Shown: piece by piece, positions 128 to 33,744 of the stretch
Position numbering within the stretch: the first letter of the stretch is position 1
How the letters are laid out: each line of letters opens with the position of its first letter
Source: an uncultured archaeon
Lineage (GTDB): Archaea; Aenigmatarchaeota; Aenigmatarchaeia; QMZP01; JACQNV01
DNA: 58,939 nucleotides
Assembly (NCBI GenBank): GCA_964476045.1
Contig: CAYYYJ010000002.1
Span: forward strand, 1 to 58,939
Direction: 5' to 3'
Notes under the pieces: model-generated
The model's database searches: none
Told to the model about the DNA's origin: nothing
What the model saw: the letters and a program-made list of their open reading frames with translations, nothing else
Program-made: the position numbers and the translations under genes

Positions 128-321
128 CGCCGAGGACAGGAATTGAACCTGCGCTCCCCGAAGGGAATCCGCTGACTAGGGACAAAGCTGATCTTCAGAT
201 CAACTTCAACCTTTCCGTTTCTCATACAAGACTAAACCTCGTCATTTCCGCCTACTTCCGAGTCAAGCCAATTTATTCACAGAAACTCAAGGCGGACGCA
301 TTACCGCTCTGCCACCTCGGC
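128..321 (-). tRNA. tRNA-Ser(UGA), class II, with ~112-nt intron (174..285) after position 37
   Basis: Sense GCCGAGG-TG-GCA..TGC-G-TCCGC-CTTGAG[intron]A-GCGGA-TTCCCTTCGGGGAGC-GCAGG-TTCAATT-CCTGT-CCTCGGC-G; acceptor, anticodon and T stems all pair. Confidence 0.8.
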
Positions 322-590
322 ATCTTAAAGAGTTTGGCTTTATGTTTTTAAATACTATTATCAAGTCGTTTTAAGATAAGTTTAGTTGACTTTAAGCCAC
401 ACAGTAAGAGTGCTCTGCGTCAGAGCTAGCTACAAAGATAAACAATTGTTCATGATTGGACAAAGAACAAATCTAAAATAGGATCAGCTTTTGATGAAAT
501 GCAAAGGACGTATAAAATAGATAGTTCAAGGCCTCTGATAGAATTTTACAGAAGCCACAAAGAATTGATTTTGATGGTTCCTGTTCGGGA

Positions 591-1568
591 TTAGATTTTC
601 TCAACCTCCGCAGTCATAGTCTCCCCAATAATCGCCCCAATCTGTGAGATCACTTTAGAGGCCATGAAAGCGCCTATCTTGCCGCAGGTTTCTAAAGATT
701 TGTTTCTTGTGCAGCCCCAGAGGAAACCGGCTGCATAAAGGTCGCCTGCGCCTGTTGTGTCAATTACTTTGGTTGGGTATATTGGAGCTTGGATTAGGAT
801 CTGGTTTTGTTTTATCAAAGAGCCTTTTGCCCCGATTTTTACAACAGCGATCTCAGCATATTTAAAGAGTTCATTGACAGCTTCAAAAGGGTCTGCTAAA
901 CCAGTGAAAGCTAGAGCCTCCGCCTCATTCGCAAAAATAAAATCAACGCCATTGTTCAAAACTTTGGTTATTTCAGAAAACTGCCTCTTAATCAGGAAAG
1001 GGTCTGCGAGATCAAAAGAGATCTTAGTTCCATTGCTTCTAGCCACGTCCATAGAATGGAATACAGCTTCTCTTGCTGACTCTATTTCGTAAGCTGTTGA
1101 ATGAAGTATCTTGGATTTTTTCACGTGGTCTTCTGAAACATCTGCAGCAGACAGGTTTCGCGCAGCTCCCAGGTTTGCGGCAAAAGTGCGCTCAGAGTCA
1201 GGCGTGATCAAGCTGATGCATTTCCCAGTGCCTGAGATATTGCATTTTGTGAGCTGTGGATGGACCATGAGTTGTTTTAAATTACTGGAAAAGAAGTCGC
1301 CATGCGCATCGTCGCCAACCCTTCCAATAAAAGCGTATTTTCCGCCGAGGTTTGCCATGCCCATTATTGTATTTGATGCAGAGCCAGCTGGGACCATTTT
1401 CGGGTTTAGGTTTCCGATTGAAGAAAGTATGGAGTTCACTTTTTGTTCGTCCAGTTCGTTAAAAGAACCTTTTTGCAAATTGAATTTTTGTATGCGGTCC
1501 GCATCAATCTGAACAAGTATGTCTATCAGCGCATTCCCTATTCCAACAGCATCGTATTCTTTTTCCAT
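591..1568 (-). CDS. PfkB-family carbohydrate/nucleoside kinase
   Basis: 325 aa ORF; DTTGAGDLYAAGF motif and N-terminal GNALIDIL typical of the ribokinase/adenosine-kinase family. Confidence 0.85.
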   Translation of the reverse strand: MEKEYDAVGIGNALIDILVQIDADRIQKFNLQKGSFNELDEQKVNSILSSIGNLNPKMVPAGSASNTIMGMANLGGKYAFIGRVGDDAHGDFFSSNLKQLMVHPQLTKCNISGTGKCISLITPDSERTFAANLGAARNLSAADVSEDHVKKSKILHSTAYEIESAREAVFHSMDVARSNGTKISFDLADPFLIKRQFSEITKVLNNGVDFIFANEAEALAFTGLADPFEAVNELFKYAEIAVVKIGAKGSLIKQNQILIQAPIYPTKVIDTTGAGDLYAAGFLWGCTRNKSLETCGKIGAFMASKVISQIGAIIGETMTAEVEKI

Positions 1569-1619
1569 AATTATAGAGGATTTTCGAGGATTTAAGTTTT
1601 TCGGTTGAATATATAAAAT

Positions 1620-2270
1620 ATGGCTTTTAAACTAGTCGCTTTCAGTTTTAGCGGAGTTCTGGTTAATTTTGAAGGCGCCGATAACGCTTGGGATCTGATA
1701 AGGAATTTGTACAAAGTGCCTAACCTATGGAAAGAGTATATTGAAGGGAAGATGAGCAGGTACCAGGTCAAGACAGAGGAATACAAATTATGGAAAACAG
1801 CTGGAATAAAATTAGACAACCTCATGACAGATTTGAGAAAGAACACAAAGATTTTTCCTGGAGTCGAGAAGCTTCTCCACGAGTTAAGGTCAAGAAATAT
1901 TGTCCCTGCTACTGTTTCTGACAGCCCTCACGTGATTGTTGAGGATATTGCTAACAGGCTTGGAATAAAATATTTTTCTGCGAATAGGGTTCTTTTCAAC
2001 AAAGACGGGTTTGCATACGAGACAGTTCCTTCCCACCCTTCTGGAGATGGCCGCGTCTCGAAATTGATTGCGCTAAAAGATTTCACAAACAGGGAGAACA
2101 TAAGATTGAGCGAAGTCATTGCAATCGGGAATGACAGGGAGGATATAGAATTGTTCAACGTAGTTGGGCGTTCGATCGCATTCAATGCCAAAGACATGGA
2201 GACAAGGAAAGCTGCACAGATAATAGTTAATTCGAATGATCTAGAGGATGTTTTGGATTATTTGAAGTAG
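1620..2270 (+). CDS. SerB-like HAD-fold protein with degenerate catalytic motifs
   Basis: HAD/phosphoserine-phosphatase-like layout, but motif I reads VAFSFSGVLV (expected DxDGT) and motif IV reads GNDREDIELF (expected GDGxND). Confidence 0.65.
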   Translation: MAFKLVAFSFSGVLVNFEGADNAWDLIRNLYKVPNLWKEYIEGKMSRYQVKTEEYKLWKTAGIKLDNLMTDLRKNTKIFPGVEKLLHELRSRNIVPATVSDSPHVIVEDIANRLGIKYFSANRVLFNKDGFAYETVPSHPSGDGRVSKLIALKDFTNRENIRLSEVIAIGNDREDIELFNVVGRSIAFNAKDMETRKAAQIIVNSNDLEDVLDYLK

Positions 2271-2292
2271 ATTTTGTTCTAAGATGTGGATA

Positions 2293-2307
2293 TATAACAC
2301 TGTTATA
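2293..2307. promoter_or_regulatory. 15-nt palindrome TATAACACTGTTATA (copy 1 upstream of JAMM gene)
   Basis: Exact palindrome; identical copy at 2391..2405. Confidence 0.5.
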
Positions 2308-2390
2308 CAATATGCCCACCCTATTTTCTAAAAAAATACACGCCCTTTATATAGACTGGAGTTACACAGCTTCTCATCTGTAATTTCCCT

Positions 2391-2405
2391 TATAACACTG
2401 TTATA
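2391..2405. promoter_or_regulatory. 15-nt palindrome TATAACACTGTTATA (copy 2, 17 nt before ATG 2422); possible TATA-containing promoter/operator
   Basis: Exact repeat of 2293..2307; its position fits a promoter for a short-leader transcript. Confidence 0.5.
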
Positions 2406-2421
2406 CTGAGGTATCCAAGTT

Positions 2422-3033
2422 ATGCACGACATCTTCATCAACCCAAAATCCCTGAAAGCCCTAGTCCTCTCAGCAGTAGAAGTCTATAACAGGGAAACTA
2501 ACGGCTTTATTGCAGGCAGAACAGTTGTGAAAAAAATCAAAGGAAAAGAAAAGCCTGTTATATCGCTCCAAACTGTTTATCCTCTGCAAACAGCTGACAG
2601 GAAACCGTCCCAGGTTATCCACGGAAACGATCTTGCTCACAGGAGAGCAGTTACATCCCTTGCTGCGATGAAGGTCCCTATTCTAGGCGGATTCCACAGC
2701 CACACTGATTATCATCCGACTCAAGATGCACCACCAGAACTGTCTCAAGGGGATATAGATCATATCCACGAAGAAATGAGAAGCCTCAAATCCCTCAGAG
2801 GCGGAAAAGAACTAAACAAATGGCTGGAAATAATACTCTCTATCAAAAAGAAAAACTATTCCAAATCACGCGAAAACAAAATGGAGATCAGCTCATACAA
2901 GAAAAGGCTTGGTTGTACAGTCATAACAGAGCCATACAAAGGCTACAAGATTACGCTCGCAGGTTATTGGCTTCAAAATAGCTCAGCTAAACTAAAAATA
3001 TTCAAGGAAGCGAAAATATATTCTTCAACTTGA
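2422..3033 (+). CDS. JAMM/MPN+ domain metalloprotease
   Basis: Conserved Glu (AVEVYNRETNGF) plus GFHSHTDYHPTQDAPPELSQGD, i.e. HxH...SxxD. Confidence 0.7.
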   Translation: MHDIFINPKSLKALVLSAVEVYNRETNGFIAGRTVVKKIKGKEKPVISLQTVYPLQTADRKPSQVIHGNDLAHRRAVTSLAAMKVPILGGFHSHTDYHPTQDAPPELSQGDIDHIHEEMRSLKSLRGGKELNKWLEIILSIKKKNYSKSRENKMEISSYKKRLGCTVITEPYKGYKITLAGYWLQNSSAKLKIFKEAKIYSST

Positions 3034-3062
3034 TTTTTAAGCAACGAGTCTAATATAGTTCG

Positions 3063-3677
3063 ATGCCAATCAAAGCAATAATCTTCGATGCAGACGACGT
3101 CCTGATAATAAAACCTAAAATGTTCAGCCAGTATCTTGAAGAAGATTATGGAATTCCGGCATCAGTAACAGCCAAATTCTTCAAAGGTGATTTCCAGAAC
3201 TGTTTGATTGGGAAAGCTGACCTTAAAGAAGAATTGAAAAAATGTATTAAAGAATGGGGTTGGGAAGGCACTGTAGACGATCTCCTTAAATATTGGTTTA
3301 AAGTCGAGCACAATATAAATCATGAACTCGTCGAACTAATAAAAGCACTTAAAGCTAAAGGAATAAAAACTTACCTCGGAACAAATAATGAGAAGTATCG
3401 AACAGAATATATAAGAAATCAAATGGGTTTCTCCAAGTTTTTAGATCATATTTTTGCTTCAGGTGAAATAGGCCACAAAAAACCCGACCTGAAATTTTTC
3501 GGGCATGTCTTCGAGAAAATAGCCCAGGATTCCAAAGTATCTAAAAACGAAATCCTTTTCATCGACGACGATCCAGAAAATATAGAGGCCGCGAAATCAT
3601 TCGGTTTCCAGACACTTCTATACAAAAATTTCCCTGAGTTTCAAAGCTTAATAAACAGTTTCGTTAAACATACATAA
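3063..3677 (+). CDS. HAD-superfamily hydrolase (subfamily IA-like)
   Basis: IIFDADDVL motif I, GTNN motif II, K...FIDDDPENI motifs III/IV. Confidence 0.8.
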   Translation: MPIKAIIFDADDVLIIKPKMFSQYLEEDYGIPASVTAKFFKGDFQNCLIGKADLKEELKKCIKEWGWEGTVDDLLKYWFKVEHNINHELVELIKALKAKGIKTYLGTNNEKYRTEYIRNQMGFSKFLDHIFASGEIGHKKPDLKFFGHVFEKIAQDSKVSKNEILFIDDDPENIEAAKSFGFQTLLYKNFPEFQSLINSFVKHT

Positions 3678-3708
3678 GTTTAAATATATACGTGTACATA
3701 AACATATC

Positions 3709-3972
3709 ATGACGACCAAAACTATTACAATAACAGAAGATGCATACGATGCCCTTAAAGGTTCAAAGGATATGGATGAAAGCTTTAGCAAAGCAATCCT
3801 CCGTATAACCCATAAAAAATCCCTGAAAGAGTTTGTCGGCGTCTTGTCAGAGAAGAGCGGGGACAAGCTTGAAGAGGCTATAAAGGAAATGAGGAGAAGC
3901 CGGGCAGAATCCAGAGAAAAGAGAATTGTGAGAATTTCAGGCCAGCTTAAAGGCAAATATGGCAGTTCTTGA
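3709..3972 (+). CDS. VapB-type antitoxin (small DNA-binding protein)
   Basis: 87 aa ORF overlapping the start of the downstream PIN gene; N-terminus KTITITEDAYDALK is typical of archaeal VapB-like antitoxins. Confidence 0.55.
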   Translation: MTTKTITITEDAYDALKGSKDMDESFSKAILRITHKKSLKEFVGVLSEKSGDKLEEAIKEMRRSRAESREKRIVRISGQLKGKYGSS

Positions 3973-4342
3973 AACTTCTTTTTTGATCGATATCCTTAGA
4001 GGCAGAAAACAGGCTGTAGACCTGCTTAACGAGCTTGAAGAAAGGGAACCGCTCTTCATAACAACTCCGACTATCATGGAATTATGGGAAGGTGCGTTGA
4101 GATCCCAGCTCCCGGAGAAAGAGATGAAAAAGACAGGAGATATGTTAGTAGCGCTCCATATCCTGGACTTTGATGCCAAGGCAGCTAAAAAAGCTGCTGA
4201 AATAAATTACGAGCTTTTACATTCACCGATAGAGGCTGAAGATTCCATGATAGCTTCAATCGCTTTTGTGCATAATGAAGTCCTTGTCACAAAGGACGAG
4301 CATTTTGTTCGTATCAGCGGCCTGAAGATACTGAAATACTGA
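3959..4342 (+). CDS. vapC: PIN-domain toxin (VapC-like)
   Basis: 127 aa; N-terminal LETSFLIDILRG, later acidic residues; 14-nt overlap with the upstream antitoxin ORF. Confidence 0.75.
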   Translation: MAVLETSFLIDILRGRKQAVDLLNELEEREPLFITTPTIMELWEGALRSQLPEKEMKKTGDMLVALHILDFDAKAAKKAAEINYELLHSPIEAEDSMIASIAFVHNEVLVTKDEHFVRISGLKILKY

Positions 4343-4346
4343 TTCT

Positions 4347-4994
4347 ATGCCAATAATCCTCGTCCCGACCTCCCACGTAGCAGAAGAAAGTGTTAGAAAG
4401 ATAAAGGAAGTGATAGAAAAAGTAAAACCAGACTGTGTTTGTGTAGAGCTGGACGAAAACCGATATCAGGCCTTGAAAACCAAACAATCTTCATCTTTCA
4501 AATCGCTAGGACCTTCCACGTGGCTTATTTTCACTCTTCTCAAAAAGCTCCAGAAAAAAATCGGCGATATAGTAGGAGTTATGCCAGGCTCTGATATGCT
4601 GACTGCAGTTGAATTTTCAATGGAGAAAAATATTCCAGTTTTCTTCATCGACCAGCCAATCCAAACAACTTTATACAATTTCCAAAAGCTCTCCTTCCGC
4701 GAAAAAATGAAATTAATGCGCTATGCTTTAACAGCTTCCTTCTCCCTTTACACTGGAATAGGTAAATCCAGAGAAAAAATAGATTTAACTAAAGTGCCTC
4801 AAGAAGACATTATAGAAAAAGCAATGGCTGAGTTCGAAAAAATCTTCCCGAGGCTCTACAAAATTTTGCTGGAAGACAGAAATGTATACATGGCTTCCCA
4901 GATCAGCCAGCTCTCAAAAACCCACAAAAAAATAGTTGCAGTTATTGGAGCAGGACACAGGAAAGGGATAAAAAGTCTACTGGAGAATAAATGA
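4347..4994 (+). CDS. TraB/PrgY-family protein
   Basis: LVPTSHVAEESV...PDCVCVELDENR and C-terminal GAGH are typical of the TraB family. Confidence 0.7.
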   Translation: MPIILVPTSHVAEESVRKIKEVIEKVKPDCVCVELDENRYQALKTKQSSSFKSLGPSTWLIFTLLKKLQKKIGDIVGVMPGSDMLTAVEFSMEKNIPVFFIDQPIQTTLYNFQKLSFREKMKLMRYALTASFSLYTGIGKSREKIDLTKVPQEDIIEKAMAEFEKIFPRLYKILLEDRNVYMASQISQLSKTHKKIVAVIGAGHRKGIKSLLENK

Positions 4995-4995
4995 T

Positions 4996-5424
4996 ATGCC
5001 CGAATATAACGCCCCATTTTTCAACGGTTTGACAGCTGTAGTCCTAGCTTTGAAAAAAAGGTACGGAGAAGACCAAGCAATAGAAGTCATGCGCGACGTT
5101 TTTAGTTCAAGGCTAAAAGGCGTCTACGATAAGCTTGGTTTCACAAAAGGGTCACCAGAAGATTTTGTCAGAGTAGTCGGAGAAAACGACAGGATGCTCG
5201 GGCTGGAAGCCGGGCTGTTTCTAGAAAAGGGAAAAATAATTTACAGGTTTAAAACAGACCCTTTCCCAAATTTGAAAGGCCATGTGAACCCGACGAATTT
5301 CGACGATTCTTATCTGAGATTCAAAGTCGAATATCTGCTTGGAAAAAACTGGTCTTACAAAACAACAAAGCATTTGTGGGGAGGAAACTCTTGCACAGAG
5401 CACGTTATTGAGAAAAAGTTATAA
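4996..5424 (+). CDS. hypothetical protein
   Basis: 142 aa ORF tightly following the previous gene; no motif recognised. Confidence 0.45.
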   Translation: MPEYNAPFFNGLTAVVLALKKRYGEDQAIEVMRDVFSSRLKGVYDKLGFTKGSPEDFVRVVGENDRMLGLEAGLFLEKGKIIYRFKTDPFPNLKGHVNPTNFDDSYLRFKVEYLLGKNWSYKTTKHLWGGNSCTEHVIEKKL

Positions 5425-5446
5425 TACTGGAATCCCTAATAAAGAT

Positions 5447-5707
5447 ATGTTACATGGCAAAAGATTGGTTAACCCAAAACATAAAATTTTAGCATTTGTT
5501 TTCTTTGAAATGATCATTAGTTTATTATTGATACAAGCTATCAGCAATCCGGATGCTCCCTTATGTCTGCGACCAGGAAGCGGTTATACAGGAGAATGCC
5601 CCCCAGAGAAGATTGCAGGCACAGCAAGCACACTTATAATACCATTATCGATACTGTTTATAATAATCTTAATTATTGGTATTCTTGAAGTCAGAAAGAT
5701 AATCTGA
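5447..5707 (+). CDS. small predicted membrane protein
   Basis: ATG at 5447 within ORF 5339..5707; two hydrophobic segments. Confidence 0.3.
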   Translation: MLHGKRLVNPKHKILAFVFFEMIISLLLIQAISNPDAPLCLRPGSGYTGECPPEKIAGTASTLIIPLSILFIIILIIGILEVRKII

Positions 5708-5710
5708 TTG

Positions 5711-7504: not shown

Positions 7505-7506
7505 AT

Positions 7507-16307: not shown

Positions 16308-16371
16308 TTTCTAAAGAAGGCTGGAAATTGATTGAGAAAAAATATAAAAAATCAATTTCGTCCCTTTAAAA
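16308..16371 (+). repeat. palindromic element copy A
   Basis: CTTTCTAAAGAAGGCTGGAAATTGATT[loop]AATCAATTTCGTCCCTTTAAA. Confidence 0.8.
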
Positions 16372-16574
16372 CTAACTACTAGAGAATTCTCGCACTCCTT
16401 ATAAAGGAGTTTTGCCAACTCTGTACCAAATTGAAAAATCAAAATTCCCTGATCAAGGTTTTCTAAAAAAGAAAGGCTGGAAGAAGTAATCTTAACTATT
16501 TTTCGTTCAGCCAGAAAGTCGTCAATAGCCGAACACGCTTTAACACTTAAAAAGGCGGATATTTTATATATGTA

Positions 16575-18725
16575 ATGGTTACTATGGATATTGTCGGTTT
16601 AGAAAGCGCATCTGGATTTTCAGGTACAAAGCTCCAGGACTTTGTGCAAGCTGCATACTTTGTTTTAAAAAAATATAATAGAGAAAACCCTAAAGAGCAG
16701 GAATTGATCTGGCAAGATCTCTGCAAAAATCTTTTTGCTCTAAAAGAATTTTCTGACCTAAAATTTGAAGCACAGAAGCTGCTTTTCGATTTTGTTTATG
16801 GAAAGAGGCTGACTCAGGACGGACCGCCACCAGCATGGTTCCCCTCAAAAGAAAATTTAGAAAAATCAAATCTAGCTGTTGTAATGAAGGATCTGGATTT
16901 TAAAATGGCTGGAAACCGATCGAAGATGATTGAGATTGATCCTTCGCAATTGATCCGAGATCAATCTCGTCCCTTTAGGGAGTTCCACAAATGGTCTGTA
17001 GAAAACACCGACGACTTTTGGAGTCTAGTGACAAAAAGGCTTGGAATTGTATTTAAGAAGAGTTCTCAGAGGATATCAGACCTTTCTAACGGTGCAGAAA
17101 AGCCTGTTTGGTTCCCTGGTTCTGAGATAAATATTGTTGATAGCTGTTTTAATGCCGATAAAGGAAAAATTGCTGTCTATTTTTCTAGAGAAGGCTCAGG
17201 CAAAATTCAGAGCTGGACTTATGGAGATCTAGAAAATCTCGTCAATCAAGTTGCAAATAGTTTGAAAGAAAAAGGATACGAGAATGGCGATGTTATCGCG
17301 ATCGATATGCAAATGACTCCTGAGAGTGTTGCTGTTTACCTTGGAGTAATCAAAGCCGGTTGCGTTGCTTTATCAATAGCAGATTGCTTTGCTCCGCCTG
17401 AGATTGAGAAAAGGTTGAAGATAGGGAATGCGAAATTAATTTTTACAGTGGACTATTACATGAGGGACGGGAAGAAAATCGAAATTTATAATAAAGTTAA
17501 GGAGGCTAATCCTCCGCCTATTATACTAATTCCTTATGACGAAACTTCACAGGAAAAATTAGATGTGCTGGACATCTACTGGAAAGATTTTCTTGTAGTG
17601 AAAGATGAATTTGAATCTGTAGCTTGCAGACCGCAAGAGCCCACAAATATTTTATTTTCCTCTGGGACAACAGGCGAACCTAAAGCTATTCCATGGGACC
17701 ACACAACTCCAATAAAAGCTGCATCAGACTCGTTTTTCCATCAGGATATACACCCAGATGATATTTTAGCATGGCCAACAAATCTCGGATGGATGATGGG
17801 TCCGTGGCTTATCTACGCAACTTTAGTCAACAAGGCTTCAATGGCTTTGTACACAGGATCTTATTCTGGAAAAGAGTTTGGGGAATTCGTGCAAAATACT
17901 GGAGTTACTATGTTAGGTGTGATCCCAAGCTTGGTAAACATATGGAAAACAAAAAAATGCATGGAAGACCTTGATTGGAGCAAAATAAAAAGATTTAGTT
18001 CTACAGGAGAATGCTCGAGAAAAGAAGATATGTTATATCTCATGTCACTAGCTGGCTACAAACCGATAATAGAATATTGCGGCGGGACAGAGATCGGCGG
18101 GGTTTACATAACAGGAACAATGATACAGCCTTGCTCACCGTCCACTTTCACAACAGCTGCAATGGGTGTCGATTTTTTGATTCTAGACGAGAGCGGAAAA
18201 AGAACAAAAAACGGCGAGGTATTTATTATCCCGCCTTCTATTGGGTTATCGACCCTGATCTTGAATAGGGACAATTTCCAGACATATTATGAGGGATGCC
18301 CAAAAGAAAATGGCTATCATCTAAGACGGCATGGAGACCAGGTAGAGGAATTGGCAAACAACTATTTTGTTGTCCATGGAAGGACAGATGATACGATGAA
18401 CTTGTCTGGTGTAAAGGTGAGCTCTGCTGAGATTGAGAGGACACTGCACGGACATCCCGGAATATCAGAAACAGCTGCCATAGGGATAATGCCTGCAGAC
18501 ACCCGAATAACACAGCTTATTGTTTATGCAGTGCCGTCTAACGGAAGTGTTTTGAATAAGGAAAAAATAAAATCAGATTTCCAGCAAGCAATAAAAACAA
18601 AACTAAATCCAATTTATAAAATACATGATGTGGTTATAACAAATTCTCTCCCAAGGACAGCTTCGAACAAGGTGATGAGAAGGCTGCTGAGAGACGAGTA
18701 CCAGAAAAATATCCAGGCCAGATAA
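16575..18725 (+). CDS. AMP-forming acyl-CoA synthetase (acetyl/acetoacetyl-CoA synthetase-like) carrying a 24-codon element-derived insert
   Basis: 716 aa; FSSGTTGEPK AMP-binding motif, WSVENTDDFW N-domain, C-terminal TASNKVMRRLLR. Confidence 0.85.
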   Translation: MVTMDIVGLESASGFSGTKLQDFVQAAYFVLKKYNRENPKEQELIWQDLCKNLFALKEFSDLKFEAQKLLFDFVYGKRLTQDGPPPAWFPSKENLEKSNLAVVMKDLDFKMAGNRSKMIEIDPSQLIRDQSRPFREFHKWSVENTDDFWSLVTKRLGIVFKKSSQRISDLSNGAEKPVWFPGSEINIVDSCFNADKGKIAVYFSREGSGKIQSWTYGDLENLVNQVANSLKEKGYENGDVIAIDMQMTPESVAVYLGVIKAGCVALSIADCFAPPEIEKRLKIGNAKLIFTVDYYMRDGKKIEIYNKVKEANPPPIILIPYDETSQEKLDVLDIYWKDFLVVKDEFESVACRPQEPTNILFSSGTTGEPKAIPWDHTTPIKAASDSFFHQDIHPDDILAWPTNLGWMMGPWLIYATLVNKASMALYTGSYSGKEFGEFVQNTGVTMLGVIPSLVNIWKTKKCMEDLDWSKIKRFSSTGECSRKEDMLYLMSLAGYKPIIEYCGGTEIGGVYITGTMIQPCSPSTFTTAAMGVDFLILDESGKRTKNGEVFIIPPSIGLSTLILNRDNFQTYYEGCPKENGYHLRRHGDQVEELANNYFVVHGRTDDTMNLSGVKVSSAEIERTLHGHPGISETAAIGIMPADTRITQLIVYAVPSNGSVLNKEKIKSDFQQAIKTKLNPIYKIHDVVITNSLPRTASNKVMRRLLRDEYQKNIQAR
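16905..16976 (+). repeat. palindromic element copy inserted in frame in the acyl-CoA synthetase ORF
   Basis: ATGGCTGGAAACCGATCGAAGATGATTGAGATTGATC[17 nt]GATCAATCTCGTCCCTTT; near-identical to 41503..41570. Confidence 0.8.
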
Positions 18726-21485: not shown

Positions 21486-21808
21486 CTATATGGTAGGTTA
21501 GAGAAGCTTTATATGTTTTTTGTCCTGGCCATTTCAGCTTCTCAGAGAGAATTAGACCCATCTTTGGTAATCTACGAATCTGATAAAATAAGGTCAGAAC
21601 CATTTTCTGGCATCTCTAAAATTACAGGAGGCGCATATAAAAAATAACCGTCAATACAAAAAATATAAGATTTGTGTTCAGGGACAGGAAGGAGCCAACA
21701 AACCTGTCCCCAGACACAAGAAGAGGAATTTACTAGCCTACGAATATAAGTTATTAAGGAATTCTCACGCATTATATAAAGCTTTTCCCTAGTTTAGACC
21801 CAAATTCA

Positions 21809-21902
21809 GCCCTTTCTTTTCCCGATGGACTGAAACCGATTTCCGTTCGATCTATTCGAAATCGGTTTCGACCCTTTAAAGTGTTGAGATCCCAAAGAAA
21901 AA
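21809..21902 (+). repeat. palindromic element copy G with outer arms
   Basis: GCCCTTTCTTTTCCCGATGGACTGAAACCGATTTC[loop]GAAATCGGTTTCGACCCTTTAAAG...CCCAAAGAAAAAA. Confidence 0.75.
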
Positions 21903-21994
21903 ACGTTGAGATTAAGCCTTATAACCCAAGAAAGAAAAGGATTTACACCTATACCCAAAGAAAAACAATAGGCCGAATAAAACCAATAACCAAC

Positions 21995-22643: not shown

Positions 22644-22762
22644 CGCCATCACCCGGACTCGAACCGGGATATCCCGTCTTCTGAGAAATTGGAATGCTCA
22701 ATTTCAGTATGTGAAGGAAACAGGCTTTCCAGGCCTGCGCAGTACCATTGTGCCATGATGGC
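22644..22762 (-). tRNA. tRNA-Ser(GGA), class II, with ~37-nt intron in the variable arm
   Basis: Sense GCCATCA-TG-GCA..TGC-G-CAGGC-CTGGAAA-GCCTG-[52-nt variable region]-CCCGG-TTCGAGT-CCGGG-TGATGGC-G; the variable region is about 35 nt too long. Confidence 0.7.
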
Positions 22763-23068: not shown

Positions 23069-24676
23069 TTATTCATCTGCTATAAATCTTAATGTATATT
23101 CAGTGTTATCTGGTATTGTTGGTGTCTTTAGATCGCCACCTTCGACCTTTTCAGTCCTTATACACACGTAATCATCACCTATGTCATGTCCATAAGGAGC
23201 GGTTGCCTTCACTTCCCTAGGGTTTTTTATTCTTGTATCCAATGTCCAAATAGGCGATCTCCTGATTTCCCCATCGCCTTTTTTCTTAATCGTAAATTCA
23301 TACTCGACACTGCCATCTTTTCTCACTTTTCTTTCTGATATTTTTTCAAAAGGCATCTCTACTTTCGGATTTCTTCTGAGTCTGGCCTTTGATTTAGGAT
23401 TTCCATATAAAATTTGTTTTGTTGGATAAAACTGAGATGCCAGGTCTCTCATACCCATCTGTGCTGTCGGGTTTTCTTTTCTCCATTCAGCCAACCACTT
23501 TCTTTCTAAAATTGTGCCGATCTCATTTGCTAACCTTGCTTTTGTTATACTAGGCTCTTCCCCGCTTAATCTGTCAACAAGACCAAATCCATGCCTGCCA
23601 TCGAAAGTATCGAATGGGTAGCCTACCAAAACAACTGCTCCTGCATCTCTCATATAAGCTAGACAGGAAGAGTTTTCTGGATCTTCTATTCTGCCTGCCT
23701 GGCAAGTAGCTGGAAACAGGACAACTTTAGGATTTTTTGAATCAACTCTTTCTGATGTTCCGTCTGGGTGTACAAAATATAGTTTTCCATCGAAAGCAGT
23801 TGGATTAGACCCTTTGTAATTCCAGCCGCCTACTTGCCCATGAGAATTTCCGTGGCCTCCTGCCCAAACAAACAAATCTATCGATGCCCTGTTCAGTAAT
23901 CTCAGAATTTCGTCTCCGTCCCGGGAAACATAACTAGTTTTTAATTTACCATCCCCTTCAATTATAAGCTTTCTAACTTTTCCATTTGGATCCAGCTTAC
24001 CATCTTCTCCTGTTCTAGCTTCAGCATATGCAGTGCCGTTCATTGAATTATCTATAATGCCTTCTGCGCCTTTCGCAACAACATGCCTTATTTCTAGGTC
24101 AGTTGTAGATATCATCCTATAAGCTGTATCCCAATCCAGCAAACCGTCCTTGCTTTTCTGTATTGGGATCGATCCAGCTATCGCATCTGGTTCTGGATCA
24201 GGATCGATCTGAGAAGCCATGATATTGACTTTTACAGGATTGCAGGAGCTCACTGCGTCATGGATTTTTTGCCAGTTGCCTCCGTCTAATTCAGGCAAGT
24301 CTTTCAGAGCCATTTTATCTGCAGTATCCAGATAAAGAATATGCCTGAGTTTCTTTTCTTTTAACAACCCGAAAACTTCTGTAGGATCTGAATTGTATGG
24401 CGCAAATATTGCACCTTGCTTTTTTAACTCGTCAAAAGATTTCTTGCCGTTCTCATCTTTCAGCAAATTCTTTTGGACTATGACAACAAAATCTGTTTTG
24501 TCTTTGTCCTGAGCTTCCAAATTTGTGGGAGATAAAGAATATGCTACATATAAAGCAGCAGCAAGACCTGCATACCTGCCTCTTGGCTTTCTAGATGCGT
24601 ATCCTGCCTGAGCTAATGCAGAGTAACCAACTGAGTCTACTAATGTTCCCATCCTCCTATTAGAAAGTCTTGCCAT
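23069..24676 (-). CDS. membrane-anchored protein with putative clan-CD (gingipain/caspase-like) cysteine peptidase domain
   Basis: N-terminal hydrophobic segment; WAGGHGNSHG (His-Gly), then about 50 aa later FPATCQAGR (Cys), resembling the His/Cys dyad spacing. Confidence 0.4.
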   Translation of the reverse strand: MARLSNRRMGTLVDSVGYSALAQAGYASRKPRGRYAGLAAALYVAYSLSPTNLEAQDKDKTDFVVIVQKNLLKDENGKKSFDELKKQGAIFAPYNSDPTEVFGLLKEKKLRHILYLDTADKMALKDLPELDGGNWQKIHDAVSSCNPVKVNIMASQIDPDPEPDAIAGSIPIQKSKDGLLDWDTAYRMISTTDLEIRHVVAKGAEGIIDNSMNGTAYAEARTGEDGKLDPNGKVRKLIIEGDGKLKTSYVSRDGDEILRLLNRASIDLFVWAGGHGNSHGQVGGWNYKGSNPTAFDGKLYFVHPDGTSERVDSKNPKVVLFPATCQAGRIEDPENSSCLAYMRDAGAVVLVGYPFDTFDGRHGFGLVDRLSGEEPSITKARLANEIGTILERKWLAEWRKENPTAQMGMRDLASQFYPTKQILYGNPKSKARLRRNPKVEMPFEKISERKVRKDGSVEYEFTIKKKGDGEIRRSPIWTLDTRIKNPREVKATAPYGHDIGDDYVCIRTEKVEGGDLKTPTIPDNTEYTLRFIADE

Positions 24677-26327: not shown

Positions 26328-26500
26328 CGGGCCCGGTGGGAAACCAACTTTGCAATCGGTTCCTGCTGTCTTGTGTCCTGTGTTTTGAGTTCTGAGTCTT
26401 GACGGTCTTCTACCCGCTGTCCTGAGTCCTGTGTTTTGGGTCTTGACGGAAGTCTTCTGTCCACGTGTCTTGAGTATTGGACGACTCATTTGAAGACATG
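26328..26500 (+). repeat. duplicated tRNA-Lys 3' exon (14 nt) plus GT/CT-rich degenerate repeats
   Basis: CGGGCCCGGTGGGA is identical to 33194..33207; followed by GTCYTGAGTYCTG-type repeats, including a ~45-nt imperfect tandem pair. Confidence 0.65.
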
Positions 26501-29327: not shown

Positions 29328-29442
29328 TTTATTCTAAAGCTTACAACTTGAAATGCGCTTAATAATTTCAAGAGTAAAACTTTTGGGAGCTAGAAACCAT
29401 AAAAGCCGCTTCGCTTTCGCTCAGTTGGCACGTCATGAAATA

Positions 29443-30948
29443 CTATAAATTTTCAAGGAGCTTCATCAGATTTCTTTTTGGAGCATGCTTTTCTTTGATA
29501 GCAGCTATTATTTTCTGCCATTTTCCCGGGGAAATGTCCTTTATTTTCTCCAAATATGCGACAGCTGTCCTGTAATTTTCGTTTCCCATCATACGTATAT
29601 AATCCTCTGCTAAACTGAGGTATATATTTAATGCTTTATCAGCTGACACCCTTTCGGCTATCTTATTTTTCATATCTTCTGACAAACTCTTCAGTGAATA
29701 CGCTCTGCTAACATCCCCCCTTTCCAAGTATAGGCTAGCCAAAATATTTGGGCTTTTTCCATTCTTCAAATAATCAATAAGCTTTTCCCTTTCAGCTTCC
29801 CAGATATTCAGCTTTTCTGAAATTCCCCTTATTTCTTCTATGTTCCATGGGGAATGTTTAAATAGTTTCCAAGCTGTCTGAAGAGCCAATTCCAAGTCCC
29901 CTTTCTTTTTATAAAGTTCTAGAAGCTCCATATCCAACTCCCCTGATTTGGCATATTTTATTGCCTCCTCTAGTTCGCCTTTCTCAGAGAGTTTATCAAC
30001 AAGGCACTCTGTCATGTTGAAGTTTTTGCAGGTTTCAATATACTCTTTTTCTTGGCCAAGCTTTTCTACAATAAAAAGTAAAAGGGAAGCCAAGGCTTCT
30101 TTTTCCCAGCCTTCGTAACTTTTTATTTTTTCAAAAACCAGCGACTTTGTTTTTAATAACATTTTATCATTTAAACCGGACATCGGCTTCTCTATGCTTT
30201 CTTCTATTCCATAATTAGCAGCCTCTGTATACAGATCCAGCAGGTTTTCAATATCTTGCTCTGTCATCTTCTTTGCAACTTTTGAAAGGGAATCCCCTAT
30301 ACTTATAACAACATCCCCGAATTCACCATTGTCGTCAATATTGTTTATATTTTCAACGCATTTTTCTAAAAAATAAATAAGGATTTGTATAGATTCTGCA
30401 TGGAAGCCTTTATCTATAATACCATCTATTTCGTTTCTTATATCTTCAATGTTTTCAACGAATTGCGGGATGGTATTATAATCAATAAAATCAAGATCAA
30501 ATGAACTGCTAATAATGCGCATGTATTCTTTTACATCGACTGATTTATTTGCCTTCAGGGCAGTTTCTGTTTTTAGTTTTCTTAGCAGTCTCTCATTTTC
30601 CATTGAGTTTTCCAAAATAATCTCTATCAGCTTTTCTTTTTTGAATGCCTTCAGATAGGATTTTATGTCTTCTGTCCTTATTTCTTCTGTTTTGGGAGAA
30701 TTTAAATAAGCTAAAAGAGCAGCAACTATATGCTTGCAGAAGCCTTCATATGGGCAGGAACACTTCTGGCCAGATTCAGATACTTCAACAGAATACAGGG
30801 CAGAACCTCTAACCTTGGCTTTCAGTTTGTTGTCTATAAGCATCAAATTTAAAACCTTGTTATCGAAAAAGTATTTTTCTCCCCTGTAATATATTCTTTC
30901 CCCCGAAATTTCCTTTATTTTCTTGGCTGTTAGATTTTGAATGTCCAT
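29443..30948 (-). CDS. SWIM zinc-finger protein with helical-repeat C-terminal region
   Basis: CSCPYEGFCKHIVAALLAY = CxC...CxH SWIM signature; 501 aa. Confidence 0.7.
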   Translation of the reverse strand: MDIQNLTAKKIKEISGERIYYRGEKYFFDNKVLNLMLIDNKLKAKVRGSALYSVEVSESGQKCSCPYEGFCKHIVAALLAYLNSPKTEEIRTEDIKSYLKAFKKEKLIEIILENSMENERLLRKLKTETALKANKSVDVKEYMRIISSSFDLDFIDYNTIPQFVENIEDIRNEIDGIIDKGFHAESIQILIYFLEKCVENINNIDDNGEFGDVVISIGDSLSKVAKKMTEQDIENLLDLYTEAANYGIEESIEKPMSGLNDKMLLKTKSLVFEKIKSYEGWEKEALASLLLFIVEKLGQEKEYIETCKNFNMTECLVDKLSEKGELEEAIKYAKSGELDMELLELYKKKGDLELALQTAWKLFKHSPWNIEEIRGISEKLNIWEAEREKLIDYLKNGKSPNILASLYLERGDVSRAYSLKSLSEDMKNKIAERVSADKALNIYLSLAEDYIRMMGNENYRTAVAYLEKIKDISPGKWQKIIAAIKEKHAPKRNLMKLLENL

Positions 30949-30969
30949 ATTATATATTTTGTTTAACTG

Positions 30970-31275
30970 CTAAAATCTTTGCGGGACACCTAATTTCTTA
31001 CAACATTCACATTCTTCGAAAACCCTTTTTGTCGGCTTGCAGAATGTCGTCCCTTTTTTAATGAGGTCTGAAAATTCTTTGTGTGTCATTTCAGAAATTC
31101 CTTTTTCTTTTAGATTTTTGGCAATGGTTTGTATATTTTTCCAATGCGTTTTCCCGTAGTCTGGTTCTTGATCTATTACTCCACAGTTTGCACAAAAATT
31201 TCCGAAAAACCAGTTTGCCAAGTGTTCTACTTTAGCTGGCTTTTTGATTTTTGATTCTGAAAGATTTTTAATCAT
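30970..31275 (-). CDS. hypothetical Cys-containing protein
   Basis: 101 aa, CANCG and CECC pairs. Confidence 0.4.
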   Translation of the reverse strand: MIKNLSESKIKKPAKVEHLANWFFGNFCANCGVIDQEPDYGKTHWKNIQTIAKNLKEKGISEMTHKEFSDLIKKGTTFCKPTKRVFEECECCKKLGVPQRF

Positions 31276-31289
31276 ACAAGAAAAGCGAG

Positions 31290-31691
31290 TTACAGAAGCT
31301 TTAGAAATTTGTCTGGCGTCAAATTTTTTATCCCTTGAAACTCTTTCATGTCTGTAAGATCAGGATCGCCGATAACAATATAATTAGCACCTCCATCAAC
31401 AGCTGTTTCAATTATCTTGTTATCTGTTGGGTCTCTTACAACATTAAGCGTGCTGACCTTTTGTACAATGTGGTAATCATTGAAAATGGTTTCTATAAGC
31501 TTTGAAAGCTGGTCTTGAGGAAAGCCAAATTTGTTTATCAGTTTTGTCAAAAATTCTTCCAGAATTTCTTTTGAAGTGATTAAAGCATATTCTCCATTTA
31601 ATCCTCTATTAATCACTTCGTGTGGTTTGCCTCTCCAGAAAACTGAAGAGATTAGGACGTTTGTATCTGGGACAATTCTGATCTCTGGCAT
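31290..31691 (-). CDS. PIN-domain toxin (paralogue of 24825..25241)
   Basis: IVPDTNVLISSVFWRGKPH...KFLKLL. Confidence 0.8.
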   Translation of the reverse strand: MPEIRIVPDTNVLISSVFWRGKPHEVINRGLNGEYALITSKEILEEFLTKLINKFGFPQDQLSKLIETIFNDYHIVQKVSTLNVVRDPTDNKIIETAVDGGANYIVIGDPDLTDMKEFQGIKNLTPDKFLKLL

Positions 31692-31692
31692 T

Positions 31693-32001
31693 TCAATCCC
31701 CTTCTAAAACATCTTTTTCTGTTATCCCTTTTTTCTTTGCAAACTTTACGCCGAAATCCACTATTTTTTCAAATTCTTTTACAGAAGGCAGTTCCATCTT
31801 CTTGAAAATTATTGTGTCTCCACTACCATAGACTGCGAATTTTGTGCCTTCTACTATTTTCATTTTTTCCCTGATCCCCTGCGGAATAACAACCTGCCCT
31901 TTTGGAGAAGTTGTTGTCATTTCTACTTGGCTCATAACTTGGTTGGAAGCTGATTCATAGTTGGAAATTCGGTCTTTCGCCCAGCTTCGGTCTTTCACCA
32001 C
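31693..32001 (-). CDS. AbrB/SpoVT-family antitoxin (start uncertain: GTG 32001 or ATG 31920)
   Basis: TTTSPKGQVVIPQGIREKMKIVEGTKF. Confidence 0.75.
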   Translation of the reverse strand: MVKDRSWAKDRISNYESASNQVMSQVEMTTTSPKGQVVIPQGIREKMKIVEGTKFAVYGSGDTIIFKKMELPSVKEFEKIVDFGVKFAKKKGITEKDVLEGD

Positions 32002-32255
32002 CTCATATGTTAGTACAATAGTTTTACTTTCTTACTTTATAAAGGTTTGTATAACAGTTTTCTGTCCAAAAAATTAAGAAACAGCTTCTTGTTTTCTTTT
32101 GCAGTATTCCAGTCTTTTACTTTTTCAGCTTCCCTTTCGTACTTCTCTTTCAAGTTATAGTTTACAAACAGGATAAAAGTGATAAGGATGAAGCTGTTCA
32201 ATTTGCTGAAGTCTGTGGAAAGTGAAATATAAACAAAGCCGCCAAATAATCATAG

Positions 32256-32849
32256 ATGCCTGAAAAGATTAAAGCTGAAGGATTGAGAATAGAAAAACTG
32301 GAACCGAGACATAAAGAGCTGTTGAATTCTTTTCAAACTTCAAACAAGGAGCTGAAAGATTTTCTTGTTGAAGATGCATTCAAAAATCAAGAATTGGCAA
32401 TTTCAACAACTTATGTCTGGTTTTACGCAAAAACAAATGAGCTGGTTGCTTATATAACCTTGCTGACAGATTCTCTCAGAATAAGGGAAACAGAATTAGA
32501 AAAGGCATTTGTAGATAAGGGAATTTTGTATAAAAGTTTGCCTGCACTCAAAATAGGAAGACTTTGTGTGGACAACCTATTTATAGGAAGGGGCATAGGA
32601 ACCCAGACAACTTATTTTGTGATGGATGTGCTTTTGACAATCACAGATTATGCTGGCTGTAGGTTTGTAGTTCTCGATGCAAAACCAGAAGCAGTGGAGT
32701 TTTACAAGAAACTCGGATTTCAAATACTGAAACAAGCAGATAAAGAAACTGTCCCAATGTATTATGATATGAGGGCCGGTATTGACCTTTACAGAAAAGG
32801 TGAGCTTAAGCTATCTGAATATTTTTTGAAAACTTTTCGAGCTCTCTAG
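32256..32849 (+). CDS. GNAT-family N-acetyltransferase
   Basis: RLCVDNLFIGRGIGTQ acetyl-CoA binding motif; FYKKLGF. Confidence 0.8.
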   Translation: MPEKIKAEGLRIEKLEPRHKELLNSFQTSNKELKDFLVEDAFKNQELAISTTYVWFYAKTNELVAYITLLTDSLRIRETELEKAFVDKGILYKSLPALKIGRLCVDNLFIGRGIGTQTTYFVMDVLLTITDYAGCRFVVLDAKPEAVEFYKKLGFQILKQADKETVPMYYDMRAGIDLYRKGELKLSEYFLKTFRAL

Positions 32850-32964
32850 CTAATTCTCTATCCTTTTCTGTCGGAGCTGAATTGTTCTTTTTAATCATGT
32901 TCTCCAAAAATCTTCTCGCATCTTCACCAGTAATTTCTGGTGTTGGTTCAATTGGCTTTGCCAT
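32806..32964 (-). CDS. small convergent ORF (52 aa), unverified
   Basis: MAKPIEPTPEITGEDARRFLENMIKKNNSAPTEKDRELARELEKFSKNIQIA; overlaps the GNAT 3' end. Confidence 0.25.
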   Translation of the reverse strand: MAKPIEPTPEITGEDARRFLENMIKKNNSAPTEKDRELARELEKFSKNIQIA

Positions 32965-33061
32965 ATGATATTTAATTTATTTAACAGTTTATAAGCTTTC
33001 AGGAGCGTGTTTTTCAATGCTTTCCCCTTCTTATACATTTCCATCAAAAAACTCTGAAAGC

Positions 33062-33145
33062 CGTAGACCGAAGACTTTGTAGGGAACTGCTTATTCCTGT
33101 TCTATTGGTTAGGTCATGTGTCCTGAGTTCTGGGTCTTGAAGACC
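33062..33145 (+). repeat. repeat Y (matches 25565..25643), lies in the trailer of tRNA-Lys
   Basis: CCGAAGACTTTGTAGGGAACTGCTTATTCCTGTTCTATTGGTTAGGTCATGTGTCCTGAGTTCTGGGTCTTGAA. Confidence 0.75.
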
Positions 33146-33193
33146 GTAGACTGAAGACTCAGGACTTCGGAGAGAACTGCATTTGGTATGAAG

Positions 33194-33510
33194 CGGGCCC
33201 GGTGGGATTTTCAGTCTTGAGTCCTGAGTTTTGAGTATTGTTATTGACCCAACTGTATTTGTATTGTAGTTTTCTTGGATACGGTAGCCTTCTTCTAAAA
33301 GAAGGCTAGCATTTGAACCCACGACCTTCCAGGTTTTCGCTTTTCAGCAAATCACTATCCGGTATCTTCTATCAGCCGAGTTGCACATTTTCTATCATCG
33401 CAGATTTCTGTCTGCTAAATATGCTTTTAACGACATCGTTTTGAAATAAGCAATGCCTATATCAAACAATATTAAAAGCCGGGTGCTCTACCAGGCTGAG
33501 CTACGAGCCC
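33194..33510 (-). tRNA. tRNA-Lys(UUU) with two introns: anticodon-loop (33335..33472, ~138 nt) and T-loop (33207..33310, ~104 nt)
   Basis: Exons GGGCTCG-TA-GCTC..GAGC-A-CCCGG-CTTTTA / A-CCTGG-AAGGTC-GTGGG-TTCAAAT / CCCAC-CGGGCCC-G. Acceptor and T stems pair only when all three pieces are joined; one C-U mismatch in the anticodon stem. Confidence 0.65.
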
Positions 33511-33570
33511 TTTAATTTGAGATTATTGTCTCTGAGTTTATTTAAATAGTAGAAATCAATTAAACAAGAT

Positions 33571-33744
33571 GCCCAGGTTGTGTAGCGGCCTAGCATAGAG
33601 CCCTGTCATGTAAGCTTTTGTCACAAAAGCTTAAGCAAAAAAGGAGCCTAAAATTCTTTCGCTTCGGCTCAGAATTTTTACGGCTTCCACGGAAAAGGCT
33701 TATACGGATCGGCTCTGACCCGGGTTCAAATCCCGGCCTGGGCG
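33571..33744 (+). tRNA. tRNA-Asp(GUC) with ~101-nt intron (33609..33709)
   Basis: GCCCAGG...GAGCC-CTGTCA[intron]C-GGCTC-TGAC-CCGGG-TTCAAAT-CCCGG-CCTGGGC-G. Confidence 0.85.

Follow-up and report, generated by a model that had tools for sequence, protein, structure and literature searches.

Do the introns of archaeal tRNA genes share their building blocks with repeats that lie outside these genes? This question is raised by a 58,939-nt stretch of DNA from an uncultured archaeon (contig CAYYYJ010000002.1; referred to as the window), in which a small hairpin family, designated HP, is encountered in intergenic regions, in front of protein-coding genes, and at the end of a tRNA intron. An earlier note on this DNA had proposed that non-canonical tRNA introns are linked to a dispersed element family, and the analysis described here places that link well beyond chance, in the window as well as in related genomes. 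The units are best explained as a family of palindromic DNA repeats, comparable to miniature inverted-repeat transposable elements (MITEs) and to the Rickettsia palindromic elements (RPEs), for which tRNA introns would be a safe landing place, in combination with intron spread of the type described for Thermoproteales; a probability of roughly 0.6 is assigned to this reading.

The archaeal window has a G+C content of 37-42 %, and Pfam and profile scans of its open reading frames (ORFs) recognized FtsZ, TBP, an archaeal-type ThrRS, the CCA-adding enzyme, RFC, and ribosomal protein S15; the lineage is probably of the DPANN type and related to Aenigmatarchaeota. A degenerate pattern of the HP family was scanned over 185,579 species, represented by one genome each, and clustered matches were detected in only three archaeal metagenome-assembled genomes, i.e., JACQNV01 ('Candidatus Aenigmatarchaeota archaeon'), CAZVWU01 ('uncultured archaeon'), and DATDTO01 ('archaeon'). 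The remaining matches, about 15 in number, were scattered, had non-complementary arms, and were approximately as numerous as expected by chance. A metagenome scan provided 21 more loci with true family members, and outside the lineage only chance matches were obtained in the 185,579 genomes and the metagenomes. Loci of the related genomes and metagenomes are numbered with an L (L002, L005, L007, L025, L072, L073, etc.); L005, from CAZVWU01, is syntenic with the window at 12.8-18.7 kb, with a nucleotide identity of 70-77 %.

The HP hairpin and its copies

HP is a hairpin of 45-60 nt with the layout GG-NTG-GAAnnnGAT...ATCnnnTTC-GTC-CC and CAATTG in its loop, and its consensus can be written as (GAAGG)-NTG-GAAnnnGATyy-[loop with CAATTG]-rrATCnnnTTC-GTC-CCTTTA. 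Alignment of 17 copies revealed that the 12-bp main helix is paired in 95.9 % and that six of its 12 pairs change on both sides, and that NTG stands opposite GTC in a 3x3 internal loop that is conserved yet non-complementary. Known RNA motifs did not account for this structure: it lacks the tandem G.A pairs of a kink-turn, the RUGAUGA/CUGA boxes of a C/D box RNA, and the ACA tail of an H/ACA RNA, and the 3x3 internal loop was rejected as a bulge-helix-bulge (BHB) motif, as its unpaired triplets face each other and are not offset by 4 bp.

About ten copies lie in the 59-kb window, including those recovered by an inverted-repeat finder and a GTCCC-anchored script (16313-16370, 16921-16979, 21821-21880, 38636-38696, 40148-40208, 41494-41594 as a nested pair, 43740-43800, and 46728-46788), and approximately 50 copies were counted in 259 kb of related loci. 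Most copies match the covariance model (CM) of the family with E-values of 1e-13 to 1e-21. The density in the window, about one per 6 kb, corresponds to an estimated copy number in the order of 100 or more for a genome of ~1 Mb, and the units share small size, terminal inverted repeats, and many copies with MITEs.

HP is often combined with other modules. M2 and M4 are hairpins with a pyrimidine arm and a purine arm (e.g., UAGCCUUCUU/AAGAAGGCUA) followed by a 3' tail, which is GGCTACNGTAYCCAAAGAAAA for M2 and GCCTTATAACCCARAAAGAAA for M4; M3 is the module of the tRNA-Asp intron type, and M6 is a double hairpin. These modules are nested, with HP at the tip of M2/M4, of M3, or of another HP. The following units were delineated outside tRNA genes in the window:

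16313-16370, plus strand: element A, an HP copy in the divergent intergenic region upstream of an acyl-CoA synthetase gene; CM score 61-63 bits.
16905-16970, plus strand: c2, a 66-nt in-frame insertion in the acyl-CoA synthetase ORF (16575-18725); CM match at 16921-16979, E 1e-10.
21806-21946, plus strand: element G, in which an M2-type hairpin (pyrimidine/purine) bears HP at its tip, with the tail GTGTTGAGATCCCAAAGAAAA and then an M4 tail (GCCTTATAACCC); CM score 56-57 bits.
38636-38696, plus strand: an HP copy upstream of an AAA_22 ATPase gene, within its 5' leader; CM score 52 bits.
40133-40242, plus strand: element B, a forward M2 hairpin that carries HP at its tip and continues into the M2 tail GGCTACAGTACCCAAAGAAAAGGGTTTAGTAA; CM score 78-80 bits, fold z = -5.05.
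41226-41269, plus strand: a non-tRNA sequence that repeats the 5' portion of the tRNA-Asp intron, i.e., of M3 (TAAGCTTTTGTCATCAAAGCCTTAAGCAAAAAAGGATCCTAAAT), and is located between the divergent TBP and TatD genes.
41476-41626, plus strand: element C, a triple-nested palindrome in which an M2-like outer stem encloses an HP whose loop contains another HP; a partial M2 tail (ATACCGTACCCAAAAAGAAAGGGTTTAGTTAA) comes next.
43740-43800, no strand assigned: an HP copy directly 5' of the ftsZ Shine-Dalgarno sequence and start codon (43812); CM score 52-53 bits, near-equal on both strands.
46704-46806, plus strand: element D, a reverse M2 (CCCTTTTGGGTACAGTAGCC ... GGCTAC), the loop of which contains an HP in forward orientation; CM score 70-72 bits.

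The predicted fold of element C is one hairpin of 150 nt (-51.7 kcal/mol, z = -4.85), and both of its HP layers gave CM matches. Element B is located between two minus-strand genes, encoding a PRC-barrel protein and TBP, and the end of element D lies 1 nt ahead of the start codon of the gene for ribosomal protein S15. A decayed HP-like copy is present close to element A (16471-16512), and alignment showed that both are absent from the orthologous region in L005.

The four intron-bearing tRNA genes that had been named in the earlier note all exist, and taking out the inserted sequences gives back a cloverleaf:

128-321, minus strand: tRNA-Ser(UGA), with a 112-nt intron at the canonical position 37/38 (174-285); Rfam tRNA match of 42.7 bits, also found by ARAGORN with introns allowed.
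22644-22762, minus strand: tRNA-Ser(GGA), with a 52-nt variable region (22669-22720); Rfam tRNA match of 52.7 bits, with a 49-nt variable-arm insertion.
33195-33510, minus strand: tRNA-Lys(UUU), with a 104-nt T-loop intron (33208-33311) and 144 nt in the anticodon region (33328-33471); manual reading and our own tRNA finder.
33571-33746, plus strand: tRNA-Asp(GUC), with a 101-nt intron at position 37/38 (33609-33709); ARAGORN with introns allowed and our own finder.

The proposal that the Ser(UGA) intron ends in a copy of the hairpin family was borne out. Its 3' end (173-218, minus strand, sense) was detected in a search of the whole window with R1, a CM of the family from which this copy had been left out during training (19.2 bits, E 0.003). 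Because at least four of the R1 training copies, from other genomes, themselves reside in tRNA introns, a second model (R2) was built on 18 copies with contexts that were read as non-tRNA only, and this model recovered the Ser(UGA) copy as well (19.3 bits, E 0.008). The copy is a short-loop HP of the same sub-family as c2 (16905-16979) and the nested copy in element C (41494-41594), and the three have the composite TGGAAACCGATCGAAGATGRTTGAGATTGATC in common. Moreover, R2 identified HP in the introns of ten tRNAs elsewhere, with scores of 54-72 bits (L072, L073, L025, L068, L061, L007, L011, L009, L014, and L019), and these copies are found in D-loop, T-loop, and anticodon introns alike.

Two further modules connect introns to dispersed copies. 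The sequence GGCTACNGTAYCCAA, which had been suggested to recur in the Lys T-loop intron and in elements B and D, is present in three exact copies at these sites (33275-33289, minus strand; 40211-40225, plus strand; 46714-46728, minus strand) and once more with two mismatches at 41593-41607; four occurrences with at most two mismatches compare to 0.22 expected, and none of 100 shuffles reached four. The second connection had been overlooked: nucleotides 3-44 of the Asp intron align with the non-tRNA sequence at 41226-41268 with 90.7 % identity over 43 nt, and none of 300 dinucleotide shuffles reached this BLAST score.

Other parts of the proposal fared less well. The Ser(GGA) insert, which had been likened to copy G, has only a 7-bp stem (GAAAUUG/CAAUUUC) in common with the family, scores a non-significant 4.2 bits (E 0.36) even in a search of 131 nt, and gave 124/300 in a BLAST comparison with shuffles. 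The left flank of A and B that was thought to recur in the Lys T-loop intron (RAAGAAGGMT) remains a weak link, with five matches compared to 1.8 expected and 3 of 100 shuffles reaching five, and the link via the end of the Asp intron (GGAAAAGGCT) comes down to an 11-mer only. The values for the Ser(GGA) insert and for RAAGAAGGMT, at or near chance level, together with an ungapped BLAST of the two Ser introns that performed no better than shuffles, are what could be said for a chance resemblance among AT-rich low-complexity hairpins. This is hardly credible as a general explanation, in view of the E-values of most copies, the recovery of intron copies by the independent R2 model, the three exact 15-mers where 0.22 would be expected even at two mismatches, the 43-nt match of 91 % that beats 300 of 300 shuffles, and the long collinear alignments across genomes. 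The earlier note had named such a chance origin, judged by shuffling, as the outcome that would speak against it, and for HP, M2, and M3 chance is ruled out.

The copies in 5' leaders introduce another explanation, i.e., that HP is a functional cis-element, either an RNA hairpin of the 5' leader or a palindromic DNA operator to which a host protein binds, and that its presence in introns is secondary, by hitch-hiking or co-option. The genes ftsZ, rpS15, rpS4, rpL34e, and proteasome beta have copies beside their start codon or Shine-Dalgarno sequence, and CAATTG and the 3x3 loop are conserved in sequence though this is not needed for pairing. In addition, the copy in the AAA_22 leader, of which the 3' flank CCATCTATGGAG is Shine-Dalgarno-like, has counterparts at the orthologous sites of L070 and L039, where orthology is supported by the common promoter CACCAAGATATATAA, and its stem displays compensatory changes across the three genomes. 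Nevertheless, a cis-element would not be expected in random orientation in introns, inside ORFs, antisense to the gene in some of the leaders, or present in one and absent from another close relative; a hundred or more copies per ~1-Mb genome are suggestive of a selfish repeat rather than a regulon, and no Rfam family matches. As an explanation for the family this proposal is considered doubtful.

In four loci HP lies 7-25 nt upstream of a start codon on the opposite strand, with no Shine-Dalgarno sequence in between (L002 6510-6570, L006 2258-2316, L059 311-373, and L008 1004-1064); if the corresponding mRNAs are leaderless, HP would occupy their promoter region. The AAA_22 ATPase gene itself (38694-39770, plus strand) encodes a TIGR03015-like protein that scores far below the cut-off, with a weak TnsC match (E 7e-4). 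HP was also considered as an origin-recognition box beside an Orc1/Cdc6 gene, and this was rejected, as the gene at 38694 encodes an AAA_22 ATPase of another kind.

Modular introns of tRNA genes

Splice junctions of the canonical BHB type could be read from the sequence for two of the window introns. The Lys T-loop intron is bounded by GUGGG-UUCA-[AAU]...UGAA-[AAU]-CCCAC, and the Asp intron by the hBHBh' structure GAGCC-CUGU-[CAU]-GUAAGC...GCUUAU-ACGG-[AUC]-GGCUC; the same arrangement of 3-nt bulges and a 4-bp helix was read in L025, L072, and L068. The Ser(GGA) variable region probably holds a short intron.

Introns were read in the T-loops of tRNA-Lys (window), tRNA-Trp (L007), tRNA-Thr (L025 and L073), tRNA-Gly (L072), and tRNA-Ala (L068), and in D-loops in L007, L009, L061, L068, L073, and L025. 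In every intron read, the M2/M4 hairpin begins 0-2 nt past the 5' splice site. The Lys T-loop intron, for example, opens with M2 (33269-33309), consisting of the hairpin UAGCCUUCUU/AAGAAGGCUA and the tail CCGUAUCCAAGAAAAC. Across the five tRNA identities, the T-loop introns can be aligned over their full length, and what sets them apart is whether they contain HP and M6: HP is present in the Thr and Gly introns and absent from those of Lys and Trp, and M6 is absent from the window Lys intron, present in L007, and inverted and displaced by 9 nt in L025 and L073. In L068, one M4 unit constitutes the whole 74-nt T-loop intron of tRNA-Ala as well as most of a D-loop intron.

The Asp intron at position 37/38 corresponds to module M3, comprising the hairpin AAGCUUUUGUCACAAAAGCUU plus GGAGCCUAAAAUU...AAUUUUUACGGCUUCC. 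Its homologue in L019, the D-loop intron of tRNA-Gln, carries an antisense HP in the M3 loop; non-tRNA copies of M3 are present in L010 and L069. Overall, at least 12 tRNAs have HP, M2/M4, and M3 modules in their D-loop, T-loop, and 37/38 introns, and these modules likewise turn up in intergenic DNA and 5' leaders. The idea that intron transposition as in Thermoproteales applies here is sustained by these homologous introns in different tRNAs and at different positions, and as judged from such alignments the tRNA introns are a case of Thermoproteales-type transposition.

These tRNA genes are largely invisible to common tools. In the window, default ARAGORN reported tRNA-Gln alone, Rfam reported tRNA-Gln and both tRNA-Ser genes, and the Asp and both Ser genes were found by ARAGORN once introns were allowed. 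The Asp gene was missed by default ARAGORN and both Rfam scans; the Lys gene was missed by ARAGORN in either mode and by both Rfam scans, and was read by hand and recovered by our own finder. Apart from tRNAs, Rfam yielded only two spurious sub-threshold matches in the window (gathering score or E <=1), and it yielded nothing in 14 related loci because long multi-intron tRNAs escape its models.

Several observations concern individual tRNA genes. In tRNA-Lys, the 144 nt at 33328-33471 (minus strand) lie between the anticodon loop and the variable loop; their removal as a single 37/38 intron leaves no perfect anticodon stem (CCGGA, CCUGG or CCGG+G), no module of the repeat family was recognized in them, and they may represent two introns. 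A 14-nt copy of the tRNA-Lys 3' exon (CGGGCCCGGTGGGA, the 3' strands of the T-stem and acceptor) is present at 26329-26480 (plus strand), followed by GU-rich repeats GTCTTGNGTCCTGNGTTTTGAGT as in the 3' part of the Lys T-loop intron; these repeats occur again at 33100-33165. On the minus strand this segment is preceded by a TTTAAAT box, and possible interpretations are a tRNA fragment, a pseudogene, and an att-like remnant. In L007, tRNA-Trp(CCA) (4600-5135, minus strand) contains three introns, in the D-loop, at 37/38, and in the T-loop, with a total length of more than 450 nt; all of them consist of M2, M4, and M6 with two antisense short-loop HP copies, and a C/D-box guide of the kind found in the euryarchaeal tRNA-Trp intron is not apparent in them.

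Units that adjoin repeated host sequence were encountered in two loci. A composite of M2 and HP with ends identical to those of element D adjoins the tRNA-Thr gene in L073 (2424-2556, plus strand), and 10 nt of the tRNA-Thr 5' end (GCCTCCGTAG) flank it on both sides. In L072 (1980-2300, minus strand), the first 36 nt of an ORF (MFEEISAYFYKH) are present three times, separated by two identical M4 units with a period of 98 nt; a Shine-Dalgarno sequence is associated with the first copy only, and the last, complete ORF-start copy begins ~28 nt downstream of the M4 sequence CCTTATAA. M4 might therefore act as a portable promoter (CCTTATAA) for a leaderless mRNA; the tRNA and ribosomal-protein genes of this lineage use TTTAAATA-type boxes.

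Insertions in protein-coding genes and the question of splicing

The proposed extension of the family to ORFs is substantiated by c2, the 66-nt in-frame insertion. It consists of an outer-left HP arm and a complete inner HP, encodes MAGNRSKMIEIDPSQLIRDQSR (22 codons), and is positioned between the N-terminal extension and the ACAS_N domain of the acyl-CoA synthetase. The insertion is absent from the L005 orthologue at the DNA and protein level and from three remote homologues at the protein level; c1 and c2 are both absent from the L005 orthologue. A second case was found in L073, where the gene for Kae1 (2-604, plus strand), which functions in tRNA t6A synthesis, contains an in-frame short-loop HP (130-175) encoding approximately 10 amino acids (AGDGSSDPSRPS); judged against the solved structures of Kae1 from P. 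abyssi and M. jannaschii, this insertion sits in a loop. The peptides of the inserted regions are IEIDPSQLIRDQSRPF and GDGSSDPSRPS, and both inserts are free of stop codons and use the same frame of the element (TCT CGT CCC, or S-R-P). Such in-frame, stop-free insertions in conserved protein genes resemble those of RPEs.

The leader and ORF copies bear on the explanation that was implied in the earlier note, namely that the units outside tRNAs are introns cut by the splicing endonuclease. In its strict form, which is unlikely, the units would be mobile BHB introns that the endonuclease and the RtcB ligase excise from tRNAs, leaders, and ORFs, with splicing of mRNAs throughout the genome. The position of the M2/M4 hairpin immediately past the 5' splice site would fit this scenario, as would the non-tRNA copy at 21806, which begins right after AAAU as T-loop introns do, and the observation that elements directly adjoin start codons and that ORFs stay open despite an element within them. 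Broad-specificity endonucleases of DPANN archaea and archaeal mRNA introns of the BHB type have been documented (PMC5829648). That the units supply their own hairpin-plus-bulge to the host endonuclease, with leader and ORF copies being excised from mRNAs, is quite unlikely; if true, it would imply widespread protein-enzyme-dependent mRNA splicing in a DPANN lineage, with the elements as the long-sought vehicle of archaeal tRNA intron gain.

Three lines of evidence are at odds with mRNA splicing. First, non-tRNA copies end before the 3' splice half of the intron and lack the part that would form the central helix with the exon. In alignments with the T-loop introns of tRNA-Thr (L025 and L073) and tRNA-Gly (L072), element G, which does not reside in a tRNA and also gave a BLAST match in L025, covers the 5' two-thirds; for G (21806-21946) and B (40133-40242) alike, collinearity is limited to this part, without the UGAAAAU end that pairs with the T loop. 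Secondly, HP and whole composites are found in both orientations relative to host genes and tRNAs: within tRNA introns approximately eight HP copies are sense and six antisense (best CM strand compared to the tRNA strand), and relative to the asymmetric M2/M4 tail approximately nine are forward and seven reverse (hand-corrected tally). Thirdly, neither ORF insertion shifts the reading frame or introduces a stop codon, and the two use one and the same frame of the element, which would be unnecessary if they were spliced; the joint chance is estimated roughly at ~0.02. A generic BHB scan of the window returned about 900 matches per strand and has no discriminating power as to whether non-tRNA copies could be spliced. 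The occurrence of HP in either orientation, the missing 3' splice half, and the in-frame ORF copies favor a DNA-level repeat over introns that move into mRNAs, and suggest that the units are not introns spliced from mRNAs and better fit a repeat that is tolerated in introns.

A proposed role of palindromic DNA repeats in intron gain

In the proposed palindromic-repeat scenario, small nested palindromic units would colonize the non-coding DNA of this lineage, being copied at the DNA level by an enzyme acting in trans, or by hairpin-promoted recombination or repair. The units would survive only where they are harmless, i.e., in short intergenic leaders, in tRNA introns, and rarely in surface loops of proteins if inserted in frame. 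Within tRNA introns they would be removed by the splicing endonuclease along with the intron, and whole introns composed of these units have spread between tRNAs and between positions. M2/M4 always abuts the 5' splice site, and its hairpin probably replaces the inner helix of the BHB motif.

A number of points weigh against this palindromic-repeat reading. No transposase, integrase or RAYT-like gene (for REP-associated tyrosine transposase, with REP standing for repetitive extragenic palindromic) was detected among 40 window ORFs or by a rough tblastn of 318 kb, and probes for Y1 transposases gave no significant match in these 318 kb, a weak negative; the proposed copying mechanism is therefore wholly inferential. 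Direct repeats differ in length (10 nt in L073, and 36 nt in three copies in L072), which is inconsistent for target-site duplications, and no direct repeat is visible at element D or at the M6 sites in L007 and L025. The AAA_22-leader copy, kept with compensatory changes in three genomes, appears constrained and not junk-like, several copies lie within 7-25 nt of start codons, and the CAATTG loop and the non-complementary 3x3 loop are conserved. Moreover, the intron examples are non-independent, as they are inherited or copied as units, and the orientation counts overstate the number of events; the tRNA hosts in the other loci were assigned with our own heuristic finder and by reading, and not with a calibrated tool. 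Some of the leader copies may have acquired a function.

The family can be compared to several known systems. Intron transposition among tRNA genes of Thermoproteales was proposed in 2010 and has been reviewed (PMC4090602, PMC4033280). Similar introns in tRNAs of different identity and at different positions, both of which were tested and found here, are shared with that system, as are multiple introns per tRNA and a mechanism presumed to act at the DNA level. In contrast to Thermoproteales, the lineage studied here is DPANN-like, has FtsZ, and a G+C content of 39 %, and its introns, of 74 to ~230 nt, are modular, with modules that are not confined to tRNA genes and are seen in leaders, intergenic DNA, and ORFs as well. 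The literature searched contained no report of archaeal tRNA-intron modules as dispersed repeats in leaders, intergenic DNA or ORFs, and none for DPANN archaea.

Among bacterial repeats, RPEs were reportedly described by Ogata and colleagues in 2000 as short palindromic repeats scattered in a small genome. RPEs are tolerated in frame in protein genes and in RNA genes, and have no transposase of their own; they are not known to form proteinaceously spliced tRNA introns. The present units resemble RPEs as scattered palindromes with in-frame ORF insertions and no transposase of their own found, a likeness by description. REP sequences and bacterial interspersed mosaic elements (BIMEs), with their RAYT transposases and the insertion sequences (ISs) that target REP loops, are extragenic imperfect palindromes with conserved unpaired positions. 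High copy number, clustering and nesting at hairpin loops, and strand-specific features despite palindromy are common to REP/BIME and the units described here; unlike REP, the latter have no GTAG-type 5' tetranucleotide and instead a GG-NTG flank with GTC opposite, no RAYT/Y1 transposase was detected in 318 kb (the weak negative given above), and they are also found in introns and ORFs. Archaeal MITEs, such as the SM elements of Sulfolobus, are small, non-autonomous, bounded by inverted repeats, multi-copy, and mutually nesting. Compared to these, the units lack a consistent target-site duplication and an identified parent IS, and display a strong association with tRNA introns. Among viral contigs, no match to the HP pattern was found, and a single M4 match inside a coding region, without a hairpin, was taken as chance. 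Element C served as a query against collections of plasmids and phages, without a match.

Other ORFs of the window include an NTP_transf_2 nucleotidyltransferase ORF adjoining a HEPN ORF (54406-55555), likely a toxin-antitoxin module, a second NTP_transf_2 ORF (51855-52807) with a neighboring ORF (52391-52807), and an AAA_14/DUF4143 ATPase (52856-54112). A protein of 501 amino acids (29443-30948, minus strand) has a SWIM zinc finger as its sole recognizable feature, and the large ORFs at 23069-24676, 49418-51682, and 56840-58927 gave no Pfam or NCBIfam match.

For the biology of this lineage, one practical consequence is that standard tRNA finders miss many of its tRNAs, including Lys and Asp in the window and nearly all hosts in the related loci when default ARAGORN and Rfam are used. 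Peptides derived from the repeat are found in essential proteins such as Kae1. As for the gain of introns by archaeal tRNA genes, transposition in Thermoproteales was deduced without a vehicle or copies outside tRNAs. Here, the building blocks of the introns are seen elsewhere in the genome, and this makes the family a candidate mobile agent of intron gain that can be tested.

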